Below, piece by piece: positions 1,728 to 62,136 of a stretch of DNA of 64,000 bases; positions within the stretch are counted from its first letter, which is position 1, and each line of letters opens with the position of its first letter. The stretch lies in NCBI GenBank assembly GCA_000091205.1, contig AP006483.2. One strand, given 5' to 3'. The notes under the pieces were generated by a model. That model worked only from the letters and a program-made list of their open reading frames with translations, ran no database searches and was not told where the DNA came from. This stretch comes from Cyanidioschyzon merolae. Taxonomy: Eukaryota. The position numbers and the translations under genes are program-made.

Positions 1728-1979
1728 CGTCGCCGCCGCCAACGCCATCGCTGCAGGCAGCCGCAAGGCATTGAGATTGTGATCGTTTCCTGGAGCGCGC
1801 CTGCGTTGCTGCAGTGCAGATATTTCTGATGCGCCGCCGCCGCCGCCAACGCCATCGCTGCAGGCAGCCGCAAGGCATTGAGATTGTGATCGTTTCCTGG
1901 AGCGCGCCTGCGTTGCTGCAGTGCAGATATTTCTGATGCGTCGTCGCCGCCGCCAACGCCATCGCTGCAGGCAGCCGCC
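1728..1979. repeat. Tandem minisatellite, ~106-bp unit x ~2.4 copies, upstream of the Myb gene.
   Basis: The unit cgccgccgccaacgccatcgctgcaggcagccgcaaggcattgagattgtgatcgtttcctggagcgcgcctgcgttgctgcagtgcagatatttctgatgcg is repeated head-to-tail at 1728, 1833 and (partial) 1941. It lies 155-400 bp upstream of the minus-strand start codon at 1573. Confidence 0.85.
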
Positions 1980-3546: not shown

Positions 3547-4274
3547 CCATTTCGTTAGGCGTGATCATGGCCAGCAGATGCAGCTCTCGATTGTCCTTCG
3601 CTAGATCCGTAAATAGGTGTGCCTTGTGCCATGCACATGTTGAAACTGCTTCGAGCACGTTAACCTGCAAAACCAAGCTGCTGGTTTTGGTAAGTACACA
3701 AAGCGTATCTGAAAAAGGTAACCAAAATGGAACCACAGGTCTCGGTACACACACGACGATATCTCCCTGGGACGGGACCGTGTTCGTGATCCGACGCACA
3801 AGTCTTGCTTGACTACGAAATACGACGGCTGCTTTAGCCGAATCAGGGAATGCTCTAGCGTGCGACAAGTGGGACATATTGAATGCTAGTTTACGGGCGT
3901 CTGCTGCGGCCGTCGAAGTAGCCTAGGCTGTCAGTGCGGCACTGTCCTACTGGAATCGTTGTTTTCCCGCTCACAGCAACTAAACGTCATCATGCAAGGT
4001 GCAGTCCAAAATAGTCCGCCCGACTCACAGTTTCCGGACGAAGCTCATGGATTTGCAGCATCGGTACCGGAAACGAATGTCCCCAAACAAAAGCGCAGCG
4101 TTTGTGCAACCGCAACGCTCGTCGTATACCTGGGACCTCTAATTTGCTCTTGAGCAAAGGTATGCGCTCATTAGCGGCATCCCGCTCACCACGACGTCCA
4201 TGGGCCTGGCTTTCGTTCACCTCGTGCGCATGCCATTCGTAAAAGCAGCTCGGTCTGCACGTACAGTGCGATAT

Positions 4275-4299
4275 GCATCGTCGTCGTCGTCGTCGTCGT
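4275..4299. repeat. (TCG)8 trinucleotide microsatellite.
   Basis: The sequence reads catcgtcgtcgtcgtcgtcgtcgttg. Confidence 0.85.
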
Positions 4300-4878
4300 T
4301 GTCTGTGTGCTCGATACACATACCCCATAAACAGCCGAGTTGTCTCGCCGCAAAGCGATCGTGCCTGTTGCAACCGAGCGCTGCCTACGCTACGAAGCGA
4401 CCATGCACGGGCACCAGCGTTGACGGACAACTTTATAGAGTCGCGCTTTTCGTCGACCGACTCGAGTTGGATCCACTGGTCGCTGCGCGCCTCCGGATGC
4501 ATCAGGGACTGCGAAGCGAGCAAGTCTCACGCCGCATCCCGGTGTGATGGGCCAGCTGATAGAAACCGCTGCACGTCCGGACCATGGAGAAACCTCGATG
4601 TCGGAGAATTTAACTTTACGTTCTTACCATTGCCATGCAACACATTGCGACCTCTTGTGTCTCACATCTAGCGCATGCACTGCATCATGCGACGATATCA
4701 TTGGCTACCCATACGTTTCGCAGACGACAGATGTCGCTACGGTCGCGTTCCGCGCTCCATCGCCAGCATTCATTCGAATTCTCTCGTAGAGCTTCCCAGC
4801 ATTTTACACTTGACGGTCTCGATGACGACATCATTTTTGGGTTATACGGAAAGCGCGTTCGTTCGCCGAGCCCTCGCG

Positions 4879-11234: not shown

Positions 11235-11835
11235 CGACAGACCCCGACGCCAAGCCCTGTAACGCACAGTACGGCGCACGGGATGGTGTGCGCTGCGCCC
11301 CCGACGCAATTCTCAAAATCGCTGTGCGGAATTCGGAGCGCAGTGCCCCCGATGCACAGCCCTGAATCCCTGGGGGAATTCTCAAAATCGCTGTGCGGAA
11401 TTCGGAGCGCTGTGCCCCCGATGCACAGCCCTGAATCACTGGGGGGGAATTCTCAAAATCGCTGTGCGGAATTCGGAGCGCTGCGAACCCGATGCACCGC
11501 CCTGAATCACTGGGGGGAATTCTCAAAATCGCTGTGCGGAATTCGGAGCGCTGCGAACCCGATGCACAGCCCTGAATCCCTGGGGGGAATTCTCAAAATC
11601 GCTGTGCGGAATTCGGAGCGCTGCGAACCCGATGCACAGCCCTGAATCCCTGGGGGAATTCTCAAAATCGCTGTGCGGAATTCGGAGCGCTGTGCCCCCG
11701 ATGCACAGCCCTGAATCCCTGGGGGGAATTCTCAAAATCGCTGTGCGGAATTCGGAGCGCTGCGAACCCGATGCACAGCCCTGAATCCCTGGGGGGAATT
11801 CTCAAAATCGCTGTGCGGAATTCGGAGCGCTGTGA
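11235..11835. repeat. Tandem minisatellite, 70-71-bp unit x ~8.5 copies, immediately upstream of the bromodomain gene start.
   Basis: The unit gaattctcaaaatcgctgtgcggaattcggagcgctg[ct]g[ac][ac]cccgatgcacagccctgaatc[ca]ctggggg starts at 11376, 11447, 11517, 11587 and so on. Each unit has two EcoRI sites and an internal inverted pair gctgtgc/gcacagc. The whole unit is conserved with no unique spacers. Confidence 0.9.
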
Positions 11836-11899
11836 ATGGTATCCCTCGTAGAGATGCTATGGATGCTATTCTTAAGAGTGATGGTATGAATGTTGACGA

Positions 11900-25795: not shown

Positions 25796-25949
25796 TTCGC
25801 GATCCGTACGGAAACGAGTGCATCATTTCTAAGAACGTGATGAAAGGCTGCAGGATGCCCCGCGTGAGCATAGTTGCGAGTCTTCGCACGTCCGTTCGTA
25901 GCAGAGGCGAATCATAAACGAGAATGCACGGTACCAGATGAACTCGATG

Positions 25950-27600
25950 AAGGACAGGGTGCACGGGTACGGAGTATCTGCAGCTTTCGCTGGTACAGAG
26001 ACGCACGCGCTTTAAGTGGCATCGGATGCGCCAGGTCGTTGACCCTAAGCTTGCCTCGTTGGCGTTGCGCAACAAGGCAGTGGCCGCCGCTGCTACGCAC
26101 TGCGTTACGTTCCTTGCTGTACGCCATGCTTATAGTCTTTCGTTTCAGTCTTTTCCCCTTTTCTGGATGTAATCGAGTGCTTTTTTTTGTAGTGCATAGC
26201 AGGAGATCGCCATCAAGATGCAATGTACTCTATAGATCGTAGATGGATTGCCTGAAGGATACATGCTTTACTGAATCGTGCAAGGAGGACTGCATACCTC
26301 CTTAAAATGAGTCGTATCATAGTACTCAGATGGTTGAGGAACTCTGAAAGAAACAAGTATATGCTCTCGCGACAGAAACCCGATATTCCTGCCGGCTGAT
26401 TGCGGTAAACGGTAGTGAAGCGGTTCCTTGAACATCTTACAAGCAGCAAAAAGCGACCATTGAGGTCACGATAAGCGTCTCTGGTCTTGTCCAGCTCGTT
26501 CGAGTGGTCCTCAAATCACTGGAATACAGTTGCAAAAAAGTCCAGTATCACGTACGGTCATCTTCCAGTGAAGTCGCAACGACCGCGTTCCTGAAATGCA
26601 GCGATCCATACGAAGCACAGGGACGTCGCCTTGTTTTTTTCGGTTGACGATCGTTGCTTCGGGCACACTGGTCGGAACGTATATGGGTACTTGCGTCTGC
26701 GGAGCTCGTTCCATGTGCAATCGAACCCGTAGAGCGCGATATCATCATCTGTTCGAGCTGCAGTGGATTCATTTGACGGCTTCAGTTTCGCTCACAAAGA
26801 AGGTTCATACAACAGCACCAACCACGTTGTCGAATCATTGAAGACTTTTCCCTTGAAGTCTGGCATCGACCTTCTATTCGACAACGTCGCATTTCAGCAT
26901 GCAGCTTGCTTCAGATCTTTTGCAGATTATGTTGGGGTAGAGCTGCTGTTCATCCGTCCGTACTCCCGGTGGTTCAGTTCCGTCGAAAGAGGGTTTTCGA
27001 TCGCGAGACACAATGATCGATTCACTCGGCGAATTAATGATAACCGATGGGCATACAGAGTTCCGTCGATTCGGTGAAATAAGAAATCCCAGGGAAAGGT
27101 ATGGGCGTGCAAGTCGGGGATCCCGGCGGGCGGTCATCGCCGGCTGCCCAAGAAAAAAAACGAAAATATCCCGTTCTCACCGACCATCGAGCGAAGAAGA
27201 GCAACTGTCGAAGAAGACGACGCAAAAAAAGGGAGACAGATGAGAGAACGTGTTTCCCCGACGGGTCGAGGACGAGACTGTAGTAGCACAGGAGGCATGA
27301 ATTCGGGAAATCCTTGGAACAGTGCGTCCACTCAGCAGTAATGCACGCAAAGAGCTCATGAACTCAGACCGCAAAGCGCTTTCAACATCAGACAATGTTT
27401 GGTGCTGAAGACAAGACCGGAGGAGCTGATGCGAGCCAACTTCGTGCGGTAGCTTCTCAATGTCGAAATGTACAAGGAGAAACAAAAACCGACGAGAGGT
27501 TGCCGGTCGAAAACGGCTAGGAGGCGTCTGCGTCTGGGCTTCCATGCACTCTATATTATTGTGAAACGTTGTTTGTTTCATTGACATGCATGTAGTGGCT
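25950..27600 (+). mobile_element. Tc1/mariner-superfamily DNA transposon, decayed near-full-length copy C.
   Basis: It is collinear with copy B. The HDNAPSH-like block reads LLFDNVAFQHAA. The PYSPDLNPIE-like block reads ELLFIRPYSRWFSSVERGF. The first-D region reads KHRDVALFFSVDD. TIR-like ends are agtactcagatggttgaggaac...tgaaagaaacaag (5' side) and cttgtttgtttcattgacatgcatgtagt (3'). The frame is broken. Confidence 0.6.
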
Positions 27601-27658
27601 GCGTTCATGCGCACGTCCACCATTTCGTTCCGTAGCCTCAGAATCCGACAGCAATACG

Positions 27659-27693
27659 CACCACCACCACCACCACCACCACCACCACCACCA
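27659..27693. repeat. (CAC/CCA)11 trinucleotide microsatellite.
   Basis: The sequence reads caccaccaccaccaccaccaccaccaccaccacca. Confidence 0.9.
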
Positions 27694-29086
27694 TCAACAT
27701 CACTACCTATCCATCTCTCTGGAGATCACGGGTCATTCGTGCGTTCCACTGGATGCGAAGCTGTGACGCCAATTGTCTCCAAACTTGGTTCGTGCATCTC
27801 TATGGTATACGCGAACGGTTGATGAGTCGGCCTTGAAGTAGTGCATACGGCCTCGAATCTCGTTTGGATTCAGTCCAATAGATTTGCACGAGCATCCGAT
27901 CGAGCGACACGGGATCCACGAAGGCGCGTTTCCCGTCCGGAGCAATGCACGTGGGCATCAGCTCGAACGCTTCGGACGTCGGCATGCGGTGCTGCCTCGT
28001 CTGCAGGGTCCGCTCCAGGTTCTGAAAATGCTGGATACGGCGAACGTCTTGCATCCATTGTCCCGAGATCGCAGACGCATACCAGTCGGTAAAGATTCTT
28101 CCTGGTGCAGCGCATGATGTTGTCCCCTGAAATTCCAGCGGACGCAGAAAACAAACTGGTAACCGGGGAACAGGCATCGCGTTTGTTTTCCACAGCGTCT
28201 GCCACGTTCTACCCGTATCAGAGAGGCGCCCTCGTACATGCGGCTCCATCGAAGCTGACCGATAACATCGCAGCAGGCGAGTCGCACGCTGCACATTCGT
28301 ACTGATCACCCGTTGAATACAGGGTATACACTGCAGCGCATGCACCCTACAAGACACTGGGGCGCTTCAACGTCGACTCAACTGCCGTGGCGTTCCGACT
28401 CGCACATCAGGTCTATGTGTGCGGACGCGGTTACCCATTTCCAAACCTGGACGCTCGGTGGGCATTGGGTCCCGGCCAGCGAGAGCGACAGCATCGGCAA
28501 ACGGGTATGCCCCTGTGTCATCATCCGGTTCTCTGGGCACCCCGCCCCCTGATTAGGATTCTCGGAAATAGAGTGCATCTGAATACGTGTTGGCACGCGT
28601 TTGGTCGATGAAGACGGCTCCGGCTTCACGACGCAAACCTGATGTGTTCCGCAAAGACGAAACCTCGCACACACGAAGGATTGCATGGCGTCGAAGCAGG
28701 TCCAAGTACCGTACCGGTCGACGCCAGAGAAAAAAGCGATGCCATGGCCGAGACTCGTCTCTTTCAGAGCCAAACTTTATGCACGCGTAACGCGCTCACG
28801 ACACTCTAGACGACACGGGGTTTGCTGCGGTGACGCCCGTGCACAGCGCGAATGATGCGTTCAGACGTGAAAGAGTTGCTCCGGCGTTTCCGATTCTTGG
28901 ATCCTCCCGCATGTTTACCAGAAAAAATGCTACCATCCCCCGGGGCTCTACCGAAAGTCGTCCACCCCAAGTTTCTCGCGACTAGGATTGAACACGCTCT
29001 GTGGACGCCTGACGAAAGCACGATCCGGGGCAGCGTTCAGCACAGAGTACGTTGCTTTGTTGGCGAGACTGCTGCCATGGTCTTGT

Positions 29087-31471: not shown

Positions 31472-31698
31472 GATCGATCCATCGATCCATTTTCTCATCG
31501 GCAAAACGTTTCCCTAGGCCAGCGTTCTCCGATTATGCGCATTTTTTTTCTTTCTTTTTTTGTGTTATTTTTTCAGTGCGCGGTATCGATCCATCGATCC
31601 AAAGATCCTCCGGCAAAACGTTTCCCTAGGCCAGCGTTCTCCGATTATGCGCATTTTTCTTTTCTTTCTTTTTTTGTGTTATTTTTTCAGTGCGCGGT
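31472..31698. repeat. 113-bp tandem duplication (x2) in the 5' region of the Bfr1-like gene.
   Basis: tgatcgatccatcgatccattttctcatcggcaaaacgtttccctaggccagcgttctccgattatgcgcattttttttctttctttttttgtgttattttttcagtgcgcggt is repeated at 31584. Each copy ends in a long polypyrimidine tract followed by cag. Confidence 0.85.
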
Positions 31699-40090: not shown

Positions 40091-41335
40091 TCAGCGTACA
40101 GCGTCACTGACTCGCGGCGGTGGCAACAGCGAGATCGGAGTCGTCCGCAGATACTCCCAATCGCTCTCGTCGAAAAGGTCGCCAGGCTGCAGGGCATTTC
40201 CTGTAGCTGTCTTGGTCTGCAGTAGTGCCCTGCACCGCTGCCGTGCCTCCTCTAGGCCGCAAACACGTTCAAGCAGCTCTGCCCGCGTCACATTTTCCGC
40301 AATCGCCTCCAAACAATCAATGACTACGGAGGCGTAGTTCGGTGACTCTTTGTCGAGACGCGGGCGCAAAAAGCGCCATTCGCCAGCCAAACGATCATAA
40401 GTGCATTCGATCACCGCCTCATGCCAACGAGCGTAGTCTGCGAACCACTCGCGCTTTAAACGACTCGGAAAATATACCTCTCGATAGCGCACGACTCCGT
40501 TGTCGCCGCGATAGCCGAGAAACGCGCGGACGTCGTTGGCCGGATCATTCCCAGCCTGTAGCCAAAGAATGAAGTCGACCGTGTTATGCGTTGGGTATTT
40601 GTACTTGAGAAGTGCTGCACAGGTGCGCAGGGTATACGGCAAGCCAACTGGGGTAAAGATGATGCCGTCGTTGCCACTCTGAAAGACGCCATCGCTCCGC
40701 AAGTGCCGATACGTGTACGTCGGAGCGCCGCCTTGAGGGTCATCGGCTTTCCCGGAACGACCCTGGTAAATGCGCGAAAAGAGCAGCGGAAGCTCAGCCT
40801 TCTCATAGACGTCTTTGCGTCGCACTCGCAAACAGCCCGCAGTAGCGGGGTGCAGGGCACGCGGCCCCGTCACGTACCGCTCGATAGCATCCAGGCGGAC
40901 GCGGTAGGACTGGTAGGCGATGCCGGTGTCGCCCTGGATAGCGATCACGTCGTAGGCGAGGTACTCGAAGCGCTCGATGCACTCGTTGTAGACCAACTCA
41001 CCATCAAGAAGTGTGTCTTGGTGCAGAGAGCCGTCAGGCATCATAAGCACCGGATATGGCGTCACAGCAAATAGGTCGAGACGTCGATCCACCAGCAGAA
41101 CGCCCAGCTCTGTAGCAAAGAGTAGATAGCGAACGCCGTCCGATTTCTCCAGGAGCAGGTAGTCGCAGTCACGTACCATTGAGAAATGGCGTCTTGACAG
41201 CGTCACCGGCATACTGCCAGCGAAGGAGCGCGGCGGCTCGGACGCTCGTGCTACCCTTTGAAAAAGGCTCTGAAGCCGGACGAGTAGTTGACCTTTTTCG
41301 GCTGGTGGCAGACGCACGTAGCCGGCCTCCGCCAT
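40091..41335 (-). CDS. mRNA capping enzyme, guanylyltransferase subunit (Ceg1 type, no fused triphosphatase).
   Basis: All nucleotidyltransferase motifs are present. Motif I is KSDGVRYLL, motif III LLDGELV, motif IV DGIIF, motif V LLKYKYP and motif VI WRFLRPRLDKESPN. The ORF continues 181 codons further upstream, to 41878, through Cys/Ala/Thr-rich sequence that does not look like protein. The start is taken at MAEAGYV (41335). Confidence 0.8.
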   Translation of the reverse strand: MAEAGYVRLPPAEKGQLLVRLQSLFQRVARASEPPRSFAGSMPVTLSRRHFSMVRDCDYLLLEKSDGVRYLLFATELGVLLVDRRLDLFAVTPYPVLMMPDGSLHQDTLLDGELVYNECIERFEYLAYDVIAIQGDTGIAYQSYRVRLDAIERYVTGPRALHPATAGCLRVRRKDVYEKAELPLLFSRIYQGRSGKADDPQGGAPTYTYRHLRSDGVFQSGNDGIIFTPVGLPYTLRTCAALLKYKYPTHNTVDFILWLQAGNDPANDVRAFLGYRGDNGVVRYREVYFPSRLKREWFADYARWHEAVIECTYDRLAGEWRFLRPRLDKESPNYASVVIDCLEAIAENVTRAELLERVCGLEEARQRCRALLQTKTATGNALQPGDLFDESDWEYLRTTPISLLPPPRVSDAVR

Positions 41336-42874
41336 TTTCGCTTCACGGTTGGTTGCCTCTGTTACACCGGCAGCAGCGGTTGCAGTAACGCTCGAGCGAC
41401 ACCCAGCAGAAGCACAGCAGGCTACTGGGCCTGCAGTGCGCGAGGCTGGACCCGTAGCCGGGAGCAGCTGGCAGCGGTACCGGCAACAGACGAACGAAGT
41501 GCAACACGACCCGCTGGCGCCGAATCCCGCTGCGTCATGGACGATCAGGACCACCTCGTATTGTCCGCGGTGGATCAACAGATTCGGAAATACTTTGGCG
41601 TGGATATTCTGGGCCCTGGATCCGTAGAACCTGCTGGAAAAATCTAGCATACAGTCTCTGGAGGTGTATGCCACTGGTGACCGTTGCTCCCGAGCGACCT
41701 GCGTGTATGCACGGACGCTTTGCTCGCGAATATTTACGGGTGCGTCAGCATCTGTCCATCGACCTGTATGCACTGATGCTTCGCGCTCGAATGTTTTCAG
41801 GTGCATCGTCGTCACTGCATTGGCCTGGGGCGCACCCGCTCGCGACCATGAACGCGATAAACAGGTAGATGTCGCCATGCTGCTTCATTCATGGAGCGCT
41901 CTACGAGTCCTCGTGCTCTGGGCAGTACACCATTAGCTTGTTCTCGATACTATGTTTGCATATGAGATTAGCTGAGCTGACATCTTACAAATGGCCAATT
42001 CGCTGCGAACCGGTGCCCACTGCGCTGAGCTACGAGTACGATTCCTGCAGCAAAACGCCCCTTGAGAGGGAATGCGCAGGTTGGATTCTCTGCCAGGTAT
42101 CCGTACGCATGCAACAACATGATATTCGGTGTTGCGCTTACGTGGCGAGCGCGGTGCCACCAGGCTCGTCGGATGGCTTCAGGAATGTCCCTCGCAGCTG
42201 CCTCGCAGAGGTCGTTATCGATGGAAGTGCATGTTGCAAGTGTACAGGCACGTGCTCGAGCGTCGCATTTCTGAACGACGCGGAATCCAGGCAAGTCTCG
42301 GGTATATTTGGCCAATACAGAGGGAACAGCTGGGCAGAGAAAATGGGTGTTTCGCTGAGCCTTGCATGATTGCAGTTCGCGACAACATCGTCTCGTCCAG
42401 AGAACGCACAGAGCAGCAGCACTCGCTTCACGGAATTCGCATATGCGTCTCAAGTGCGCGTTGTCCAAATAGAACTCGATATAGGACTTGACAAATTTGC
42501 GGGTCTGTACTGGGAAATGAAGCGTTGTGGATCTGCTTGTAGTGCGTCGCGCAGCAAGGGTGCGTATCGCGCTCGCGAGCATGTCTTGCGCATGCGCGCG
42601 TGCTCGCAGCGGCAATCAAGCCCAGCTTCCGTATGAGTTACATCGCATGGCGCGACAGTCAGGGAGCAGCAAAGCCTGATCATGGATTTATTTTTGCAGT
42701 ACGCTCCAAACCAAAGCCGCCGTCTATCCCCGTGGCATTTTCGGAACAATGCCGAAATGGCTCTCAAGGAACGCATCCCACAGGACAATCGATCCCCGAA
42801 TCCCGGCTGGCTGGGGCTCGCGGCAAGCCATCCATGCAGCGCTGAATCGCGCTGAAGCCCAAGGCCTCTCTGCC

Positions 42875-43190
42875 GATCCAGTTCGTACATGCACCATGCG
42901 TGTTACAACTTTAGCGGGAAATATGTAGTTGCGTGCGCGAAACCGCTTCCGCCGATCTAGTTCGTACATGCACCATGCGTGTTACAATTTTAGCGGGAAA
43001 TATGTAGTTGCGTGCGCGAAACCGCTTCCGCCGATCTAGTTCGTACATGCACCATGCGTGTTACAATTTTGGCGGGAAATATGTTGTTGCGTGCGCGAAA
43101 CCGCCTCCGCCGATCTAGTTCGTACATGCGCCATGCGTGTTACAATTTTAGCGGGAAATATGTTGTTGCGTGCGCGAAAGCGCTTCCGCC
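42875..43190. repeat. Tandem minisatellite, 79-bp unit x 4, between the divergent capping-enzyme and TBCB genes.
   Basis: The unit gatc[ct]agttcgtacatgcaccatgcgtgttacaa[ct]ttt[ag]gcgggaaatatgt[at]gttgcgtgcgcgaaaccgc[ct]tccgcc occurs at 42875, 42954, 43033 and 43112. Confidence 0.9.
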
Positions 43191-43388
43191 GATGTACGCG
43201 CGTCGGTGCTGTGGCGACGATTGCGGCCCCGAAGCCAAGCGGCGCTCGCCGAACAACAACAACAAGCGCACCGCACCGCATTCGAGACGCGATCCCTCTA
43301 GCTTGCTAGCGCAGACCACGACGCTGGAAGAGGCGGCACGCTCGCAGCGAGCGACGGGCTCTCGGGCTGGCCTCTCACTACAGGCAGT

Positions 43389-44162: not shown

Positions 44163-46299
44163 CCGACGCCTTCGATGCAGAGAGTGTTGTTTGGAAAGCG
44201 GTCGGATACGTTTTCGGATAAAGTGGCTGGATATGATGGCGGCACTTTACAGACGCTTCGCCCGCGCGGCATCGATACGAGGTCCGGTACGACGGGTACG
44301 AAATGTTTTGACGGGAAAAATGGGGGCGCGCGCTGTCCCCGCTTCGCCGCATCCCTACCGGTACACACCACAGCGTTATACCTGTAGAAAGCTTCTCATA
44401 AATTGCTGTATTTCCTAGTAATGTATCCGTAGCAATTCGAGACACGACGCGACGCAAACGGATCGGATCGTTTCCGTACCGACAGGGTGTGTGCGCTGGG
44501 CGAAGCGCTCATGCGCGTCCATACGCTTTAATATCGAGGAGTCAAACTGTACGATCGTTCACCAATCGCTGAGGGAAACCGTTCCCATTATATATATCTC
44601 TATATTGATCTCGAGCCTTGTTGGATTGCTGAAGCGTAGGAAACTAGTGCGTGGCTCGGGGCGAGCATCCAATGCACTCGCTCTCTGCAGCTGATTTCTA
44701 TTTCATCGAAGTTCTTCCACGGTTTGGCTCAATGCTTCCGATAAGTCCCATGCGATACCATCGAGAGTTCGCTGGACACACCCGCGGATCGTTTCAGAAG
44801 TATGGCAAATTTCCCGGCGTTGATCAGGACGCTCAAGATCTGGTGCAGCATGCGTTTCCAGGCTCTTTTCCTGGTGGTATCACTTCAGAGCAAGCCTTTC
44901 ACCTGCGAATGTCTCGCCATTTAGCGTTCGGTCATCATATTGTAGTCCATTTCGTGCATCCATCTCTCTTGCACTCTCTGATTCTCTACCTGTTTTAGCA
45001 TGCGCTCGTGCTCGTAATGCATCTAGATCGTTCTGAAATTATCGATGCAAATCGTACGGAATCGATGCTTGCATCAGGTGTAGGCACTGGCCGACAGAGC
45101 AAAATGCAGGATTTGTATGCTACTGCATGTCCAGCGGCACGAGGTTAAACAAAATGACAGAACTTGCAGGCCGTTTTCCTGTATGACTCGGTAAAGAGGG
45201 CGGCGAATGCAGGTTTTGCGCCAATGTACGTCGAAAACCGTCGACAAACTAAAGCGATTTCTTGTACGCTCGCCAAAGAGCGTTCGCATCAGCCATATGG
45301 ACACTCATATACTCTCTGAATACAGCGCACAAAGCGCAACCTGCTGCTCGATGGGATGCTCGAAGCGTCGAGATGGGTCCTGATGCCCTCGCTCCACTCG
45401 CTGGTGCGCCTCGTGGTGTCGCTCATGTCCGACTCTCGATGATACCGACACCTGGAAATATTGAGAGGCTTCTTCTGTTTTCGAATCGAGTCATTGGCTG
45501 GTGCTCTTGATGAAGAGATATGGCGAACGTGTTGAGGTGCTTCAACCCGGGATCCACGCCCTTGGGAGAGTCCTCCGCTTCATCTTCCTCGCATGATTTT
45601 TATGGGGCTCGCTGCTCGACTCTGGCAATTTTTTCACAACATGCTTGCAAACGGATATTCCGATTGTCTCCATGGTCCGTGAAAGCCGCTTTTCATTTGC
45701 TCCCCGTAACCGAGAACGCTCGAATGAGCTCCGCAAATGCGCTTCGCAACGATGCCCAATGCTGTTTCAATGCTCGCAGGGACCAGCCGTTCCTCACTGC
45801 GCAGGCCATGAACGATTCTATACGATTGCCTACGGTCATATCACGGTCCCTGATAGGACCCATAGAGACCAGATGACTAGGCGCTTGACGAGGCTGGAGC
45901 GCTCGGGTACCGATGTGGGCGTCTGCTCTGCTCCAGAGCGCTCTCTTCAGGAAATCTTTCTCGTCCAAAACGCAAGCACAGCAGATTCCAAAATTCCTTT
46001 GTCCTTTGAATGCAAAGCGCATTGGTCCGCATTCGAGAATACCACGGTGAATGTAGACGAACTGAGGAGGCACTCGATCTCACTGCGACTCCTCGTCTGA
46101 ACTCGCTACCACCTCGATCTCTTCCGCCTTTAGCTCATCATTTGCTTCCATCGCTACCCCAAGAATTTCGTCGATTCGTCCGCGAATTTCTGCGCCAATA
46201 CGATTGGGGTACAGCGCCCACGGGATGCCCCTAAGATACGCTCGAGACTGATCCGCGTATGCTTTTGGTTTACGATGACAGTTTCTTATTTTTGGTACC

Positions 46300-47300
46300 A
46301 GCGCTGTAGATGTTGCGATCGCCGGAGTGGTGCGGGCACGCGTCAGCTTGTTCAACGGAGCAGATATGCAAATCTCTGATCCTATGATGGATGCGCACCT
46401 CATCTTCTGTCCCGAGCATCAGCTATGTTTTCGCATGGGAATTCGATCGAAGTATTCCACAGACAGCTGGACAGCTTTCTGTCCTGCTCTAGGAACGCCT
46501 GTGAAGAGTTGGTCGACGAGATGCGTCAAGCCGAGAGCAGACGAGCGATACTCTCTCGAGTTAGACTCTATTCGATGCTCGCTGGTACGCTGCATCTATC
46601 AGAGTCGCGTCTGCGAACGACTCGTCAATTGGGCCTTGCGCGTAAAACTGGCGTTTGAACAACGTCCAGTACGCTCTCGACTCGATTGTACCGCAGATAA
46701 TAAGCTGGCAGGCAGACCAGCTCAATGCTAGTCCCAGATGCCTGCTGCTTGACCCCTGTTTTCTGGTGGAAAGCGACGTTTTCTATGATCAGGACAGAGT
46801 CATCTGGGAACGATGGGTCACGACTTGTGCTTCGACGACGGATGAGGTATTGAACGATCCTGCCCGTTCTGCGGTTTGCCGGTCACCACACGAATGCAAT
46901 GCGGTTTACGGCGGTAGCTGGTCCCCTTCTCGCTTGTGTTCCATTTTCGAATGACAGTTTGCCGCTCATGGAGAGCCCATATACAACTCTATTATCTCTC
47001 GCCGATGAAGCCCCATTGAATGAGACAAATACAGGGAGTTCCTGTGACAAGCGTTCGCGTTTCAGCACGAAATCGATGAAGCATTGGTCATCTTCAGATG
47101 GTCTCCCAGAGAAGCGCATTTTTTTCTTTATACACCTGTATCTCTGTATCCTGCATATATCCATGGTGCGGACGCTTCACAAGCTGTGCCCTCTCTGGAA
47201 GCATTTTTCAGATCATGTACGTAGTCGATTGGACTGATGAGTAGGTAGTGTTCCGATAGCGTTTAACATGTTCTTTTTTGGGCACACGACCATCCGAATA
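46300..47300 (+). mobile_element. Tc1/mariner-like transposase fossil, copy D (HTH region and first-Asp region), 3'-truncated.
   Basis: An HTH-like block reads ...RVCERLVNWALRVKLAFEQ. The first-D block reads EAPLNETNTGSSCDKRSRFSTKSMKHWSSSDGLPEKRIFFFI, matching the mariner consensus HELNE...GDEKWIFF. It is homologous to 6790-7122 and to the internal regions of copies B and C. Confidence 0.5.
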
Positions 47301-47593
47301 AGGTCTAGACAAATAGCAGTTCATCCATCTGCTGTTCGTTGAATGCCTAGCGTGCAGTAGCAAGGCCGGTTTTCCATAAGATATCATGCAAAGCGTAAAC
47401 GCATTCCGCAACCTTCTTCAATTTTCTGCACAGATTCCTATCGTTCACTACCAGCGGAAAAAGCCAACAAAAACAAATTGGCGTGCCTGTACAGGTATTC
47501 ACGAGATCGATGCGATGAGTATAATGCCGCCGTAGCGCGTGCCCTTGGTACCTAGGCGAACGCTGTCAGCGCCATCATGTTCCTGGATCCGCT

Positions 47594-53803: not shown

Positions 53804-54871
53804 CTAGTCTGACCCTTCTTTCCGGTATCCATGAGGGTTCTCGCTCTGCCATTTCCACGTGGACGCACACATTTCATCGATACCGAGCTTGGCTTCCCAA
53901 CCGAGGAATGTTTTGGCAAAGCTCGGATCCGCGTAGACAACAGCAGCATCGCCTGGTCTTCGCGCAACAATTTTGTACGGAATACGACGCCCGGACGCTT
54001 TCTCGAAAGCTTTCACCATCTCAAGCACGGAGTATCCTCGGCCGGTGCCAAGGTTTACCGCAACGCAGCCCACGTTTGCCTCGTCTTTTTCAAGTTTCTC
54101 TAACGCCGCCACATGGCCCTTTGCTAAATCCACCACATGAATGTAGTCACGAACGCCGGTTCCATCCGGAGTGGGGTAGTCATTCCCGTACACCGAGAGA
54201 AACTCTCGGCGTCCGACGGCAACCTGTGCGATAAACGGCATCAAATTATTCGGAATACCCACGGGATCTTCCCCGATACGCCCGGAAGCATGGGCACCAA
54301 CGGGATTAAAGTAGCGCAGGATGAGAATGTGCCAGTCGCGTCCACCATGTGGCGAGGCGTGCAGATCCCGCAAGAACTCTTCAATAAACAATTTGGTTTT
54401 GCCGTATGGATTCGTGGCACCAAGTGGTGATGTTTCCGAAATCGGCACCTTTTCTGCCTGCCCGTACACTGTCGCCGACGATGAAAACACAAATCGACGA
54501 CATCCGTGGCGGTTTAAGCTCTGCAGAAGGTTCAACGTGCCAATCAAGTTGTTCCGGTAATACCGCAACGGTTGCTCTACAGACTCGCCTACAGCTTTCA
54601 GGCCTGCAAAGTGAATACAAGCGCTGATTGGCGCTGATTTTGCCACAGCAGCGTCCAGTGCAACGCCATCCGTGAGGTCAACGGCTTGAAACTGCAGCCG
54701 CTGCTCACTGGCCCCGGTGAGCTCCCGTACCCTGCGCAGCGCCTCCTCACTCGAGTTGCTCAGGTTATCCAGGACAACCACATCGTAACCCGATTCAAGG
54801 AGCTCTACGACCGTATGACTTCCAATATAACCTGCCCCTCCAGTTACCAATATCCTTTTCGTATGATCCAT
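53804..54871 (-). CDS. UDP-glucose 4-epimerase (GalE). It is stand-alone, with no mutarotase fusion.
   Basis: The Rossmann motif is [29 protein letters not shown]. The active-site triad regions are SSSATVYG and ...YGKTK.... The protein is 355 aa and collinear with GalE. Confidence 0.9.
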
Positions 54872-55205
54872 AGAAGATTACGACGACTATGATGATGATA
54901 GTAGTAGTGGTGGTGGTGAGGATGAGCTCGTCGGCGAGGGCGTATACGTGCCGGTGTACCAGAAAGCCGACACGTCCCCGCGCGAGCGATGCTGAGACGC
55001 GTCTCGGGATCCCCGGGCTGCACCGGTGCCTGCGCGCACATCGTCGCGAACCGCGCCAGCTGCGCTCGTGGCCGCACATTCCTGTAACCGCTATGTACCG
55101 ATTTGGAAAGGGCGCTACGCGAGCGCCCCATAGGCGTTCGTGCTGCCTTCGGGAACGACGCAGAAGATCTCCTGACCCGCTCGATACGGTGGCGTCTCTG
55201 CTAAG

Positions 55206-55250
55206 TGTGCGTGCGTGCGTGCGTGTGTGCCTGCGTGCGTGCCTGCGTGT
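55206..55250. repeat. (GTGC)n tetranucleotide microsatellite in the GalE / thiolase divergent intergenic region.
   Basis: The sequence reads gtgcgtgcgtgcgtgcgtgtgtgcctgcgtgcgtgcctgcgtgt. A mixed trinucleotide run (atg/agt/ggt) lies at 54889-54935. Confidence 0.85.
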
Positions 55251-56289
55251 TTCCACACACTGATGCTTGTCGATGCGCAGCGCAGAGCGTGCCGCTCGAA
55301 CGGAATACGAGTCGCTCTGGATAACGAGGCAGAGGGTGCGCTCCCAGCGCTCAGGCGTTGCCCGGATCGCTCATTTCCTCCAGCTTGTCATTCCGGGCTC
55401 AAGGCAGGCTAGCTTGTGTAACCGATCAGCGTCCTGATCGACGATGACGATGACGTCGAGTCTTGCGTTCTGCAGCGAGTGAGCTGCGTCTGGAGCCGGC
55501 GCCCTCAAAGGCTTCGCAAAGGCATGCATGCCTCGTAGGGCGAGCGCAGCAGCGGCTTATCCAGTGGAACAGCATTCAGTTGCGGTAAGCTTCATGTCCA
55601 TCTAATCAGTGTATCGAGCATGCGATTATGCAGTCGACGCATTCTGGTCTGGAGTTCGTGGAACGCGGCGGCATCCGGGTGGGGATATGAGCGGCCTCTT
55701 CGCAGCTGGTTGCCGCCAACCAGCATGCGCTTGAGGACCTCCGCTTCGGATCAAGGATCTTTCAGCTTCTAGCAAGCTTACGCACAGTAGTAGCCGCAGA
55801 CAACCAAGTCCGTCGAATCATGGAAGAGCGTATGCTGAGGTGGCAAAGAGCCGCGACGTTCTTGCCAGCTGCCGAGATCGCCACGGAGCCATCGCCGCTC
55901 ATGGGAGCGCACTCGCCAGCCCGCCGAGAAACGAAAACGTAAATGCGAAACACCATTCTGCACCTAGAGGCCGGCAGACATGACTACCTACCATTCGAAC
56001 AAAATCCCACTTGCGCTATTGGCGCAATGCTCGCAAAGCGAACCCAGCGATGCCATGGGTTATCATGCGCCTGCGAACGATCCGATGATCCGCCGTCCCG
56101 TGCGCAGTGTTCCGCTTGTAGCGCTCGATGCTGCCGCCGCGACGCTGCAGCCTGCACTCGAAGCGAAGCTACCTCCCTGGCATTGGCGCTATCCACCGCA
56201 GATCAGGCACTGGAGGCGCCGCCTTACGGCCATTGCCGAAACTACCGCCAAGAGCGTTGACGCTCCAGAGCAGTGGAACGTACGCCCGT

Positions 56290-56603
56290 CTATGATGCAA
56301 TGCAGCAATCCCCAATGTATGATGTCCATTATGATCCAAGATTGAATCAAATGGACTCAAGTGCGAACGGGTGGCGATCTATGATGCAATGCAGCAATCC
56401 CCAATCTATAACGTCCATTATGATCCAAGATTGAATCAAATGGGCTCAAGTGCGAACGGGTGGCGATCTATGATGCAATGCAGCAATCCCCAATGTATAA
56501 CGTCGATTATGATCCAAGATTGAATCAAATGGACTCAAGTGCGAACGGGTGGCGATCTATGATGCAATGCAGCTATCCCCGCATCCATCATATCCATAAT
56601 GAT
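56290..56603. repeat. Tandem minisatellite, 89-bp unit x ~3.5, 160 bp upstream of the thiolase start.
   Basis: The unit tatgatgcaatgcagcaatccccaatgtat[ga][at]cgtccattatgatccaagattgaatcaaatgg[ag]ctcaagtgcgaacgggtggcgatc occurs at 56290, 56379, 56468 and (partial) 56557. Confidence 0.9.
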
Positions 56604-56760
56604 CTATTTAGTATAAATTTAGCACAGCGCTAATTTACACACGAGCCCACCACCTTGCATCTCGCGGACCTGCAGACGCTCGTCGCCTGGCAAGTGCCAC
56701 CAGTACGCACGACTGGGCGCCACCAGCGCAAACGCAGCCTTTGCGCTCAGGGTCGCGCGT

Positions 56761-58077
56761 ATGGATGCACCTGCGCCTGCAGAAAATGACGCGCTTATAG
56801 TGGCTGGAAAGCGTACACCGCTAGGTTGTTTGGGAGGCGCTCTGGCAGGTGTTTCCGCTGTAACCCTGGGTGCTGCTGCGGTACGAGGCGCCCTCGAGGC
56901 CGCCCGCATACCCGGCGCTCTCGTTGAGGAGTGCTATTTCGGCTGCGTCCTGAGCGCGAACCTCGGACAGGCACCTGCACGCCAGGTTGCGTTGCAGGCG
57001 GGCTTACCGGTGACTTGCTGCTGCACGACCGTGAACAAGGTGTGCGCGAGTGGTGCAAAGGCCATAGCGCTGGCCGCACAGTCCATACTTCTGGGGCAGG
57101 CTGATGTAGTCGTCGCCGGAGGCATGGAGAGTATGAGTCAAGCACCCTATTGCATCGGGAATGGCGGCTCTGGTGGGCCTGAGGGCGTTCACCGCGTCCG
57201 CATCGGTGGCCTGCGCCTCTTCGATGCTCAACTCGTTGACAGTATCATGCGAGACGGTTTACTGGATGCATCACCGGCAGGGAAACCTGCGCGCCCTATG
57301 GGATGGTATGCAGATGCCTGCGCTGTCCATCATTCAATCACCAGGGAGGAACAGGACGCGTACACGTTGGAAAGTTACAGACGCGCCCAAATGGGCTGGG
57401 AATCGGGTTCCATGGCCGAAGAAGTCGTCCCTGTCCCGCTGAATTCAGCAGACAGCGCATCGATTGCACGAGATGAGGAGCCGTGGCGTCTCCAAGCCGA
57501 CAAGCTACCGCGCTTACGACCGGCTTTTGATCGAGAGCGAGGCACCGTCACAGCTGCAAATAGTTCCAAGATCAGCGACGGTGCCGCTGCAGTGGTGCTG
57601 GTCTCGCGCCGCAAGGCTCGCGAACTCGGCCTCATTTCCGCTGACAGCGCAGCAGCCGAGGATACGCTTCGTGACGGCAGACGATCTCGTTCCATTTTTC
57701 AACTCGTTGCCGCAGCTGATGCTGAGCGTGAGCCTGAATGGTTCACGCTCGCTCCCGTGACCGCGATTCGCAAGCTCTTCTCGACTCGCTATGGACTTGA
57801 TGCTAGCGACATGGCAAATGTTGATTGCTGGGAAATCAACGAGGCATTCAGTGTGGTGCCTCTGGCAGCGATCCGGGAGCTGCCTCGGATTCGTTCCGAA
57901 CGCCTGAACATGCGAGGTGGTGCGGTATCGTTGGGTCATCCTCTCGGTTGCAGTGGAGCGCGCATTGTTGTCACGCTGTTATCTGTTCTAGAGGAGCACC
58001 AATGGGAATACGGCGTTGCTGCCATCTGCAATGGCGGCGGCGGCGCTACTGCGCTTCTCATTCGGCGACTGGCTTAG
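56761..58077 (+). CDS. Acetyl-CoA C-acetyltransferase (thiolase II, acetoacetyl-CoA thiolase).
   Basis: The active-site Cys is in VNKVCASGAKAI. The His motif is NEAFSVVPL. The C-terminal Cys block is GHPLGCSGARIVVTLL...AICNGGGGATALLI. No N-terminal PTS2 nonapeptide and no C-terminal PTS1 is present. There is a ~35-aa insertion (AAEDTLRDGRRSRSIFQLVAAADAEREPEW) before the C-terminal domain. Confidence 0.9.
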   Translation: MDAPAPAENDALIVAGKRTPLGCLGGALAGVSAVTLGAAAVRGALEAARIPGALVEECYFGCVLSANLGQAPARQVALQAGLPVTCCCTTVNKVCASGAKAIALAAQSILLGQADVVVAGGMESMSQAPYCIGNGGSGGPEGVHRVRIGGLRLFDAQLVDSIMRDGLLDASPAGKPARPMGWYADACAVHHSITREEQDAYTLESYRRAQMGWESGSMAEEVVPVPLNSADSASIARDEEPWRLQADKLPRLRPAFDRERGTVTAANSSKISDGAAAVVLVSRRKARELGLISADSAAAEDTLRDGRRSRSIFQLVAAADAEREPEWFTLAPVTAIRKLFSTRYGLDASDMANVDCWEINEAFSVVPLAAIRELPRIRSERLNMRGGAVSLGHPLGCSGARIVVTLLSVLEEHQWEYGVAAICNGGGGATALLIRRLA

Positions 58078-61000
58078 AGGGCCAAGGCGGACGTGAATAC
58101 CGCGGCCCGGAGCTCAGAACGCCGCGCGTCTGCGCACAGCAACATAGCAGAACCGCATACTGAGTGTGACGTAAGCGTCAGGGTAGACTTGGTCGCGCTT
58201 GGAGGACGTTTTGGCACAGGAAGCGCGGGCTTGAAAAGCAACCCGCATTCCAAGTGCGCTGGTGCGGCTGCGGCCATGGGAGCATCTGCGAACTGCACGT
58301 ACACGACAAACAACGGCACGGTCGAGCCGACTATATGCGTGTGGGCGCAGCTCCGCCTTGGTTTTGTCTTGAGTGCGAATAGCTTCCATGTGTTGTCTGT
58401 GGACGTCGTCTGGCCCGTTGCCTGCTCCGAAAGCTTGGCACTAGAGCATCCCAGCTGCAGTGCGGCTTTTCTGTATTCGCGCGTCTACTGCTGGGGCTCG
58501 AAACATGTCTCGCCAGGATGAAATGGCATCTGAGGGGATGATCGAGCGCCTGTGGACAACACTGCGCGACCTTTTCTCATACGCTAGCCGTATTTCGCAG
58601 AGACATCCAGGAGAGCGAGCAGCGGCAGCGAAGCTGTCATTCGAGTTGTCAATCCCTGGCACTCTGCCCAGCGCTGATCGTCATGATGAAGCGCTGCTGT
58701 GTTGCTTCGCGATCCACTTGAACGCCGGACTCGTATTCCCCTGAGACCTCGCTGCCTTTTCGAGTTCCGGCTGCGATCGCTGCTGCACGGAAACCAATTG
58801 AATTCCCCAGCAGCAGGTCTTCTGCTCCGGTGGCGTTGCTATCGAATACGCTTTCATTCGTTGGCGTCGGCGGAGCGTAGAGGCTAGTCTCAACCGAGCA
58901 ACGTCATTCATTATCGAGCGTGCGTCCATCACATCCCTGGGGCATAGCGATGGTAGGTTTGCCGCCCCGTACCATATCGGAGAAGTATTCTCGCGCTAGG
59001 GTGCAATCAGGTTCCCGAAGCGACGCTGATCGTGGCGCTTTGGGCATCAACCCAGACGACAACGCTCTGTATCCATCGTTTCCTAACGAGTCGAACGTCG
59101 TTGCTGAAGCGCGCTTTGATACAAGCAACAGGCAGACGAAGGCACGTGATGCACTTTCGTGGCTCGGGAACGCCTTGAACGCCTTGGACGCTCTCCTGCT
59201 GGTCGAAATGCTCCTTGGGCCCAAATCCTGACGACGCTTCAAACGATACTCAATCCTCAGTAGTCTCGCGTGATACAAACGCATGATCATTTATCCGTTC
59301 GAAAGAAAGAACGGTTTCCAGTGTGTGTGTATCTACAGCTCTTCAAGCTCACTGTACTGCTGCAACAGACTCCATCAGTGGCTTGTTCCAGGCGGGAATG
59401 CAGTGCCCGCTCTCCCTGTTATTACAGTTTTTGCGTTGCATTTCTGGAGCGCTCCAGCACAATACCTGTCTCCAGGACAACACGATTCCCTTGAACGTTC
59501 GTTCGCCACAAACTCACTGTAAGTTCCGCAAGCAGGACACATTTCCTGGTTTTGATCAAGCGGTTCATCGCTTGGTCCAGAGCGTTCTTATGTGCGTGAT
59601 TGCTGGTGACAGCAGACTAGCGCAAGCCTCTCGGTTTCAATTCCGTTGCCGTCTGATGTCCGTACAGCTTCGTGTACACCATTTGGTGCATCCGGCTGGA
59701 TCTCAAGCTGTTCCCGTCAACCAGTCGCCGAGTGCAGACGTGCTCGTGATACTACATGCCGTCCTAGAGTCATTGATGGGAAACGTACACCATCGCTTCC
59801 TGCACGCGCTGGACGCTCTTGTCAACGGAGCATGCGAACAGTCTCTGGACGCCGCAGCACGTCCAGCGCCCTGGGCAACCAATTAGCAAACCGAGCTATC
59901 GATCGTTTCCTGGTCCAACGCATTGAAGTTCACGTATGCACGCTTGTCGCTTTCGTGCAACTGGAGACGTTGGAGGGCCCCAGCGCTGTCCGACGTTCCC
60001 CCTGTGAACACCATGCGCATAACCTATTCAGACGCTGACGTACTACCAGACGCGTACGCTCTCATACATCAGTCGCGCTCATCCAGACCAGTCAGGTGAG
60101 CGTGAGGCGTCTTCAAAGCCAACAGGGTACGCTTCATGATCCATTCGGCGAAGATCAGCACATAGTATTCGGGTTTGGTTTCGGATTGATACTTTTTGGC
60201 AACCGCCCTGTAGATATACATTCCCATTGCCGATATGGCGCGACGACAGGTCATGGTACTCTGGGGAGCGTGTGTTTCATGCTCTGATCCTACGATCAGG
60301 CCGAATCGCATGCTGTGTACCGAGCATCAGTTGTGTTTGCGCACGAAGATTCGATCGAGAAATTGCAGATGAATGTGAAAAACCGGCAGCCTTTCGTCCA
60401 GAGTCCGTACGAACTGTTTCATCTCGGGTTGCGTCCAGGTGAGCGACGCTCAGCAGACCATTCTCGACTACTAGGGGCCACGATCGCTCGTGGCGTCCAG
60501 CAACTCACTTTTCCGGAATGCTGGCCCTACTGATGTCCTCTGGCAGGCAGGCCTTGAATATGGTTTTGAGAACGATCTTTCCGCTCCGACAGTTTACCTT
60601 CACGTCGCGCGTCGCCCTGTTTCCGGGAGAATCTTTCTCCTCATTGTCCGATGACTCCTCCTCGTCCTTCCTCTTCGCCTTGTTATAGACATGACGGTGT
60701 GGCATGGATGTGGTCCCCTGTCGTCGTTTCCGTTATCTTCCTGGGACGAAGAGGCGCTGGGTGGACGACCAGACCCGAACTAACCTTTTCCGTGCATGTA
60801 CCTCCGACTCCTCTAATATCTTTTCGTCTTCCGCTCCGTCGTGCGCACGCCCACGAACCGAAACGCGTGTCTCGAGTCCGCATTGCGTACGAGCAGAAAA
60901 TCAAAACCGCAGCTCAGAGTTGATGAAGGCGGCGCAATGCATTTCAAACCAAGGCGCCAAGGGTGCGACTCACTCGTCTATTCATCATTGAGTGTAAACT

Positions 61001-62136
61001 CGGCGTTCGAGATACGAGATAAGACCTTCGAGTACATCGAATCAGCGAGCATAGGCTTGTACGACGAATAGCTCAACGCCAATGTCAGCTACATACTCCT
61101 TGACTGATTGTAAGTGATGGAGCCTGGCGTCATCTACGGCCAGTACAAGAGAGTACGGGTCCGACGAGCAACGATGAATTCCTCGACTGAGGATGAGGTA
61201 TTGAAGGATCCAGTCTGCACAGCGATTCCAGCTTCACCGTACCACTGAGTCGCCGCAAGTGTAGATGCTCTCGGCATGCTCGCTTGTCTCTTCCTTACCA
61301 GCAGCGGTTTGCTACGCCTTGCGTGCCCTTGCACTGGCACACGACTGCTCGTGTCTGAATTCCCATCGAAAGAGACGAGCTCCCGTCGGTCTTGGAATAC
61401 GCGTTCGCGTTCCGTTACGAACTTGATCAGGGGTTACTCAGCGCGCGACGCGCTCCCATGGACACGTGCTATCTCCTTGGTCTGTTGGGGTCTCTTGATT
61501 CGCGTTCGTACCAACCGTTCTGAAATATCGTTTCCTGTATATCCTCGGTACTATTTCTTAGAGAATTATGGGGTGAAATGGATTGAAGAGTTGACTCTCG
61601 TGTACACTGAGATCGATAAGGTCTGTTTTGGCAGGTAACATGCACTCGACGGACACCCAGCAGCGTGATTCACTCACTTGTTGACCGTCGTTTGTCTGAC
61701 GTGCATATTTAGCGCAAACTTGTCGCTAGTTAGCAGTGATAGGAGCACGTCTCCCCGCAACCTTTTCCAATCCATAAGTTACCATCCTTTTGTTCCATAC
61801 CCCTGAACTATCAAATAAAAACAAGAACCGCGTGCTGTAGCAGGTACGCCGCTGCGCCCCCAGCCAAGCACAACCGACACCAGGCACAGCGGGTGCGGCG
61901 AGTCTCTCTCTCACCCGGGACGCTTCACTCGGAACGAGCGTGCCGGGCCTTCAAGTCTCACGGGTACACTCACTACACCACGCAAAGAATGGCCCACGTA
62001 CTCGAGCCGCAGACTCCCGAATCCCGCGAAAACTTCGCTTCAAAGCCGCAATAACGGAAAAGATGCCAACATCGCTGCGCATCGAAGCCCATTCACTCGC
62101 CCATGACCTCGTGTGGACCTCTTCACATCATATCAC

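Follow-up and report, generated by a model that had tools for sequence, protein, structure and literature searches.

A hypervariable 89-bp minisatellite upstream of the thiolase gene CMA042C in the alga Cyanidioschyzon merolae

The 89-bp tandem array located upstream of the thiolase gene CMA042C of Cyanidioschyzon merolae is a hypervariable minisatellite (VNTR), i.e. an element of a known kind. Its head-to-tail units are longer than 10 bp, their copy number is polymorphic, variants are interspersed among them, and the array is found at a single locus both in the window (viz. the entire 64-kb stretch of DNA that was analysed) and in the metagenome collection. The reading that we put forward, with a probability of about 0.8, is that this array is a locus-specific and non-coding hypervariable VNTR in the proximal promoter of CMA042C, where it lies upstream of a TATA-like element and of a leader that is free of ATGs.

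Analysis of this region by TRF identified 3.3 copies of the 89-bp unit, with 96% matches and a score of 542 (Table 1), and an independent repeat finder placed three copies in register at a spacing of 89 bp. In the window, a 38-nt core of the unit was counted 3 times, where 0.00 occurrences are expected. In a preliminary description of this DNA, made from the letters alone, the array was given as 3.5 copies of 89 bp at positions 56290-56603. This is a fair account of its extent, because the 23 nt that follow the TRF-defined end still resemble the unit (positions 26-49 of it, with about 12 of 16 matches to positions 34-49); this tail is identical across all of the alleles that reach that far. 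The (GTGC)n repeat which that description had placed in the same intergenic region was also recovered by TRF, as (GTGC)10.8. As regards the trinucleotide microsatellite that it mentioned, short triplet runs are indeed present beside the GalE ATG, viz. (ACG)(ATG)4(AGT)3(GGT)3-4, but they form only a compound tract that falls below the TRF threshold. However, the internal palindrome ascribed to the unit does not stand, as its second arm was misquoted (the actual letters being aGATTGAATCAAATGG), the complementarity is confined to CAATC/GATTG and no inverted repeat was reported. Another, weak hairpin can be drawn in the unit (GTCCATT...AATGGAC), and the folding of the unit as a single strand in four registers was no better than that of shuffled sequence (z from -0.82 to +0.88).

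The genes on the two sides of the array, both of which are encoded on chromosome 1 of C. merolae 10D (422,616-bp record), were identified by exact protein matches of their ORFs, viz. the acetyl-CoA acetyltransferase CMA042C (the thiolase) and the UDP-glucose 4-epimerase CMA041C (GalE, with the Pfam domain Epimerase). As their accessions BAM78758 and BAM78759 are consecutive, there is no annotated CDS between GalE and thiolase. The start codons of these genes, at 54871 (-) and 56761 (+), enclose a divergent spacer of 1889 bp, within which the array starts 1417 bp from the GalE ATG and ends 157-180 bp before that of the thiolase, in agreement with its earlier placement about 160 bp upstream of the thiolase gene in the GalE/thiolase divergent region. 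The window contains 18 annotated protein genes (CMA023C to CMA044C; BAM78743-78760), a set that was built from exact ORF look-ups, Pfam results and the locus tags of a published expression table; these genes cover 26.7 kb and the non-coding DNA amounts to 37.3 kb. Other exact ORF matches were to BAM78743 (Myb), BAM78745 (CMA025C, bromodomain), BAM78750 (CMA031C) and BAM78756 (CMA039C). The label "Bfr1-like", given earlier to CMA031C, finds no support in Pfam.

Table 1. Positions of the 89-bp array, of neighbouring features and of other arrays in the window or in related species (A1 to A4 are the other arrays of the window; contig names precede positions outside the window)
Feature	Position	Strand	Basis
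89-bp minisatellite core (units 56289-56377, 56378-56466 and 56467-56555; partial unit of 25 nt, 56556-56580)	56289..56580		TRF
Degenerate continuation of the last unit (array edge)	56581..56603		Read from sequence
Presumed core promoter and 5' UTR of thiolase (ATG-free leader)	56604..56760	+	ATG count
TATAAA, candidate TATA box of thiolase	56612..56617	+	Motif search
Thiolase CMA042C, gene nearest to the 89-bp array	56761..58077	+	Match to BAM78759.1
UDP-glucose 4-epimerase CMA041C, divergent neighbour, ATG 1417 bp from the array	53804..54871	-	BAM78758.1, Pfam
Compound tract of short trinucleotide runs, located 10-50 bp before the GalE ATG	54881..54919		Read from sequence
(GTGC)10.8 microsatellite in the GalE-thiolase spacer	55207..55249		TRF
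A1, 107 bp x 2.3, 247 bp upstream of Myb CMA023C	1731..1978		TRF
A2, 70 bp x 7.6, 118 bp upstream of bromodomain CMA025C	11308..11836		TRF
A3, 112 bp x 2.0, 286 bp upstream of CMA031C	31473..31698		TRF
A4, 79 bp x 4.1, 195 bp upstream of TBCB CMA036C	42872..43193		TRF
68-bp array of a related species, from two metagenomes	L035:4791-5003 (3.1 copies); L034:4859-5003 (2.1 copies)		Repeat search
73-bp x 3.8 minisatellite of Cyanidiococcus yangmingshanensis, 441 bp upstream of the CMA031C orthologue	L038:16849-17124		

Some further features of the annotation are recorded here in their own right. The ORF of the mRNA capping enzyme CMA035C (40091-41878, minus strand) encodes 595 aa, and its N-terminus is about 180 aa longer than in its orthologues, the counterparts having 409-413 aa in related species and 519 aa in the metagenome calls; its true start codon is probably further downstream than the start of this ORF. 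Three spacers of 3-4 kb contain no annotated gene (58078-62136, 25796-29086 and 44163-47593) and are large for a genome described as compact; for the first, the only one of the three that was compared, no DNA similarity to related species was found. In other spacers, the ORFs at 3990-4502 and 7983-8702 are called in metagenome contigs and are absent from the 10D annotation.

The position of the array relative to the thiolase start is shown by two features of the intervening sequence. The candidate TATA box, which is found 9 nt past the tail of the array and at 149 bp from the ATG, is the sole TATAWA in this interval (there are 11 TATAAA in the 64 kb, counting both strands). In addition, the 157-nt leader contains no ATG on the sense strand versus 23 in the 315-nt array, and the ATG closest to the thiolase start on its upstream side is at -162, inside the array tail. 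It is only from this TATA-like motif and the depletion of ATGs that the array is placed in the proximal promoter; as of 2025, no endogenous promoter of C. merolae had been mapped or dissected (PMC12770821). The five arrays of the window are referred to as A1 to A5, where A5 is the thiolase array. The gaps between array and start codon that are free of ATGs measure 118, 286, 195 and 157 nt for A2, A3, A4 and A5, respectively, and the nearest ATG on the upstream side of the start is located at the edge of the array in A3, A4 and A5. The arrays A2-A5 thus appear to abut the 5' UTR and core promoter of their genes. Before all of the 18 annotated starts, the ATG-free stretches have a median length of about 180 nt (range 10 to 768). 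A rough estimate of ours from base composition gives an expected spacing of some 80-90 nt, about half of this value, and the difference suggests that 5' UTRs in C. merolae are about 100-300 nt long. Two contigs show unusual junctions near the thiolase start: L001 matches the window only from position 56661 onward, its first part (L001:1-1313) carrying an unrelated ORF of 415 aa in place of the array and GalE, and in L002 (positions 1-29) 29 nt of thiolase coding sequence are fused at window position 56672. These junctions may be assembly chimeras, or they may mark the 5' end of a transcript lying some 50-60 bp past the TATAAA.

The hypervariable nature of the array is evident from its natural alleles. 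In contigs assembled from hot-spring metagenomes and from the SRA, the GalE and thiolase proteins are identical to those of 10D and the DNA of the spacer between them is 98-99% identical. The copy number in these contigs was determined from the distance across the array between 40-nt anchors on both sides, and relative to 10D this distance differs by exactly -178, -89 or +178 bp, i.e. by whole multiples of 89. The alleles thus carry 1.3 copies (L005, L006 and L017), 2.3 copies (L008-L011), 3.3 copies (10D) or 5.3 copies (L007 and L015), numbers which are derived from short-read metagenome assemblies that are prone to collapse or break at repeats, many of the contigs ending at arrays. However, L005 and L006, whose arrays are of equal length, carry different units (AGATCA vs TCACGA), and therefore the differences in copy number are probably not just due to assembly collapse. 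Six of the 89 positions in the unit are variable (19, 29, 33, 35, 39 and 67), there are at least nine types of units, and the order of the variant units is different in each allele, while on both sides of the array the flanks remain colinear throughout. As both the copy number and the order of the variant units differ when the flanks are 98-99% identical, the array behaves as a classical VNTR minisatellite. Segregating sites make up 1.8-1.9% of the flanking spacer and 0.2-0.7% of the coding sequences of GalE and thiolase, and when the 6 variable positions out of 89 are set against these values no constraint on the unit is detectable.

The comparison with related species indicates that the array has no counterpart in the two species whose GalE-thiolase spacer was compared. 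The closest homologues of the thiolase are 76-78% identical, and the contigs containing them keep the gene order citrate synthase, GalE, thiolase and photolyase. No alignment to the spacer or the unit was obtained outside the coding sequences, and neither of the two related species has the 89-bp array in its syntenic GalE-thiolase spacer. In one of these, represented by contig L037, the spacer contains no array, and in the other, whose thiolase is 76% identical, an unrelated and perfect 68-bp repeat, which itself varies in copy number between two metagenomes (Table 1) and thus is a VNTR as well, is located 198 bp upstream of the GalE ATG. The 73-bp array of Cyanidiococcus yangmingshanensis (contig L038, JANCYV010000020.1, which is 93% identical to L037 over their overlap) lies in the same divergent spacer as A3 of C. 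merolae; the units of these two arrays are unrelated, and their occurrence in one orthologous spacer is possibly a coincidence. No minisatellites were found in 21 kb of a more distant relative with 67% GC (L039). Since synteny is kept while the 89-bp array is absent and unrelated arrays are seen instead, arrays of this kind turn over quickly. The comparison of orthologous promoters, which the preliminary description had proposed, has therefore revealed turnover and not conservation, and the 89-bp array, not being conserved in related species, appears to be young. The two strong arrays of the relatives, 198 and 441 bp upstream of their genes, are consistent with a 5' bias and lend it weak out-of-sample support.

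The thiolase array is one of five in the window, with units of 107, 70, 112, 79 and 89 bp for A1 to A5, none of these periods being a multiple of three. It had been stated earlier that five arrays of unrelated sequence, with units of 70-113 bp, each lie 50-400 bp from a start codon. This agrees with the TRF results, as the distances measured are those given in Table 1 for A1-A4 and 180 bp (from the TRF end) for A5, and no 6-8-mers beyond chance are common to the array units (six units compared), whose GC content is 43-63%. Differences of whole units between environmental contigs and 10D are seen for all five arrays and in both directions. A1 has one unit fewer in L020 and L021, A2 two units fewer in L020, while A3 is longer by two units in L024-L026 and A4 shorter by two or three in L018 and L024, compared with -2, -1 or +2 units for A5. 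In A2, five of the 70-bp units contain GGGGGGAAT, which corresponds to a complete unit of the repeat AATGGGGGG found at C. merolae telomeres (PMC1955436), and these are the only occurrences of GGGGGGAAT in the window, versus 0.19 expected. Beyond the edges of the window, L020 adds about 5 kb on the left side and L001 about 3 kb on the right, and neither extension contains further minisatellites; a search with the photolyase and Myb proteins for other contigs extending beyond the window found none.

The location of these arrays relative to the 18 annotated genes was compared with chance by placing five arrays at random in the non-coding DNA of the window and measuring the distance to the facing ATG. 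The share of random trials in which all five arrays came to lie as close as 286 bp to a facing ATG was 3e-5, and it was 1.6e-4 with the 400-bp limit of the preliminary description; when five unannotated ORFs were added as genes, P was 2e-4 to 2e-3. By chance, about 0.7-1.4 of the five arrays are expected at such positions, and five are observed, these being post hoc statistics on five arrays in one 64-kb window. Both A1 and A2 are situated in 5'/3' spacers of 3.4-3.8 kb and lie at the 5' end of these, and the roughly 8.7 kb of convergent 3'/3' spacers in the window contain no arrays. The test against random positions that had been called for, when run within the window, therefore places all five arrays near ATGs (P = 3e-5 to 2e-3), and the suggested tendency for minisatellites to occur in promoters holds within the window. 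However, that this tendency is lineage-specific, as was also suggested, is not shown, since variable tandem repeats are known to be enriched in the promoters of yeast and humans (PMC3899988, PMC4857002).

If the array is a young VNTR which is neutral or nearly neutral, and this is the best-supported reading, then it would have arisen by duplication of an 89-bp stretch of promoter DNA and would since have been expanded and contracted by unequal recombination, gene conversion or replication slippage. Recombination has been proposed as the main driver of minisatellite instability (PMC3899988), and meiotic recombination has been demonstrated in Cyanidioschyzon (PMC13353863). Promoter-proximal DNA would be a preferred site of such events in the C. 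merolae lineage, the 5' bias probably resulting from chromatin that is open, transcriptionally active and recombination-prone. The copy number may change the spacing of the promoter and, if the unit contains factor sites, also their dose; the array itself would be dispensable for expression of the thiolase. However, a purely mutational view does not by itself explain why the arrays avoid the other approximately 30 kb of apparently unconstrained spacer, and selection for promoter function, which is the main rival of this view, could produce the same 5' bias.

According to this main rival, the array is a selected and amplified cis-regulatory module, in which the sites for transcription factors in each unit tune the transcription of the thiolase, and the variation in copy number is adaptive. 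The array does adjoin a TATA-like element and an ATG-free leader, and neutrality alone hardly explains the clustering of arrays near promoters. The array-bearing genes are also expressed above the window median, at 145-518 TPM (median 216) in published wild-type RNA-seq, versus a median of 101 for the other 13 genes (exact Mann-Whitney P = 0.026 in a small and post hoc comparison, n = 5 vs 13); the value for CMA042C is about 218 TPM (PMC11376382 Table S1). However, the higher expression of these genes fits the mutational view and the selection view alike. Recognisable motifs provide another argument for selection, as the A5 unit has invariant TGATGCAAT (bZIP/CARE-like) and CCAAT motifs, and the sister array A4, located before TBCB, contains two canonical E2F sites in each 79-bp unit (TTTCCCGC and TTTCGCGC, minus strand), accounting for 8 of the 17 sites in the window that match the E2F consensus TTTSSCGC. 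But these consensus motifs are taken from other organisms and were chosen after looking, no factor of C. merolae is known to bind them, and no motif is common to the five units. Further, the 89-bp unit is no better conserved than neutral spacer, natural alleles with only 1.3 copies exist, and the array is absent from the orthologous promoters of the two related species. On this evidence, an adaptive role for the thiolase array is considered unlikely. Tubulin of C. merolae is expressed specifically in the S and M phases (PMC11376382), and the TBCB orthologue of Cyanidiococcus has one TTTGCCGC 215 bp upstream.

A broader proposal, which is possible and is advanced here only tentatively, is that minisatellites whose units measure about 70-115 bp would be born mainly in a narrow zone some 100-450 bp upstream of start codons in both Cyanidioschyzon and Cyanidiococcus, where the initiation regions of these algae, only recently recognised as sexual, would be hotspots of recombination and DSBs, that they would turn over so fast that unrelated arrays occupy orthologous promoters, and that some of them, e.g. 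the E2F array A4, would be enhancers tunable by copy number. If this is true, then the arrays would be a major source of natural variation in expression in a genome that is famous for lacking repeats.

The 5' association of the five arrays could also be an effect of chance or of annotation, with the 89-bp array being no more than a minisatellite at a random intergenic site. Only five arrays in one window enter the post hoc test, a relative has a weak array of 47 bp x 2 that is about 750 bp away from the closest end of a gene, and one distant relative is without arrays. However, the result of the permutation holds over several thresholds and gene sets (P = 3e-5 to 2e-3), A1 and A2 are found at the 5' end of long 5'/3' spacers and the convergent spacers are empty, and both of the strong arrays in relatives are likewise 5'-proximal. 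We therefore regard an origin of the association by chance as improbable.

Two other identities for the array are largely refuted, and each is now barely credible. The internal minisatellites that transposable elements sometimes carry, together with the AT-richness of the unit (44% GC vs 57% for the genome), could suggest an internal repeat region or remnant of a transposable element or dispersed repeat, but the unit is confined to one locus in the window and in the metagenome collection (an exact 22-mer scan of which retrieved three contigs, all of this same locus, one being a 142-kb Cyanidioschyzon contig), no terminal inverted repeats flank the array, its flanks are colinear in every allele, and transposons are very few in C. 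merolae, making up 0.7% of the genome (PMC1955436). Small RNA genes (tRNA-like or snoRNA), a structured transcribed RNA or a 5' UTR element might be thought of, as unusual tRNA genes, permuted or disrupted, are a known feature of C. merolae (PMC3728597) and the unit has a T-loop-like GATTGAATC in addition to the weak hairpin; however, ARAGORN detected no tRNA anywhere in the 64-kb window, Rfam at E up to 10 gave no match inside the array (and two chance-level snoRNA matches outside it), the fold z-scores are not significant, the two variable positions within the hairpin, 39 and 67, show no compensatory changes, and an array with 23 ATGs on the sense strand is unlikely to serve as a 5' UTR. A coding repeat was also rejected, as 89 = 3 x 29 + 2, no ORF of at least 80 aa crosses 56346-56618 and there is no annotated CDS between BAM78758 and BAM78759; the lack of any ARAGORN match applies to a permuted-tRNA origin as well. 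A scan for promoters and terminators of the bacterial type is uninformative for a eukaryote.

As a locus-specific VNTR, the array resembles classical minisatellites in being head-to-tail and confined to one non-coding locus, in the range of 1.3-5.3 copies among its natural alleles, and in having a few variant positions that are shuffled among the units and edges that are more degenerate. It differs from them in that it is very short (1-5 units) and resides in a 16.5-Mb algal genome that is nearly intron-free and transposon-poor, and in that its alleles are inferred from metagenome assemblies and not from pedigrees. A further parallel is provided by the 72-bp tandem repeats of SV40, a viral enhancer located upstream of the early TATA box. 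In both cases a small number of tandem units, each of about 70-100 bp, is placed directly before a TATA or TATA-like element, and the sister array A4 multiplies recognisable factor sites (two E2F per unit); unlike the SV40 repeats, the arrays of the window are at cellular loci, and the motifs of the A5 unit are putative. The arrays of the window are also similar to the variable promoter repeats of yeast, as the work of Vinces et al. 2009 is summarised in PMC3899988, in being polymorphic, promoter-proximal and enriched at such positions, and by analogy both may act through spacing or chromatin. However, the yeast repeats, according to the same summary, are mostly AT-rich tracts of short units that have been shown experimentally to exclude nucleosomes and to change expression (PMC3899988), whereas the arrays of the window have units of 70-112 bp and a mixed composition of 43-63% GC. 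Human promoter VNTRs that are QTLs for expression or methylation (PMC4857002) are likewise polymorphic and a few hundred bp from starts, and by this analogy the arrays are candidate modifiers of the expression of neighbouring genes.

No minisatellites other than telomeres have been described for Cyanidioschyzon in the searchable literature. The 2007 genome paper of C. merolae does not mention such arrays, and a 2024 study of dispersed repeats explicitly set the TRF repeats aside. In itself the 89-bp array is an ordinary VNTR, and its value is modest. C. merolae is a model alga whose genome is described as unusually simple and repeat-poor, and hypervariable arrays beside its presumed core promoters matter when "upstream 500-1500 bp" fragments are cloned as promoters or when arms for homologous recombination are designed. 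The arrays also constitute ready multi-allelic markers for strain typing and for following meiotic recombination, which was recently demonstrated in Cyanidiophyceae. If the 5' bias holds genome-wide, then this small and haploid genome would be well suited for a test between recombination hotspots and selection on expression.
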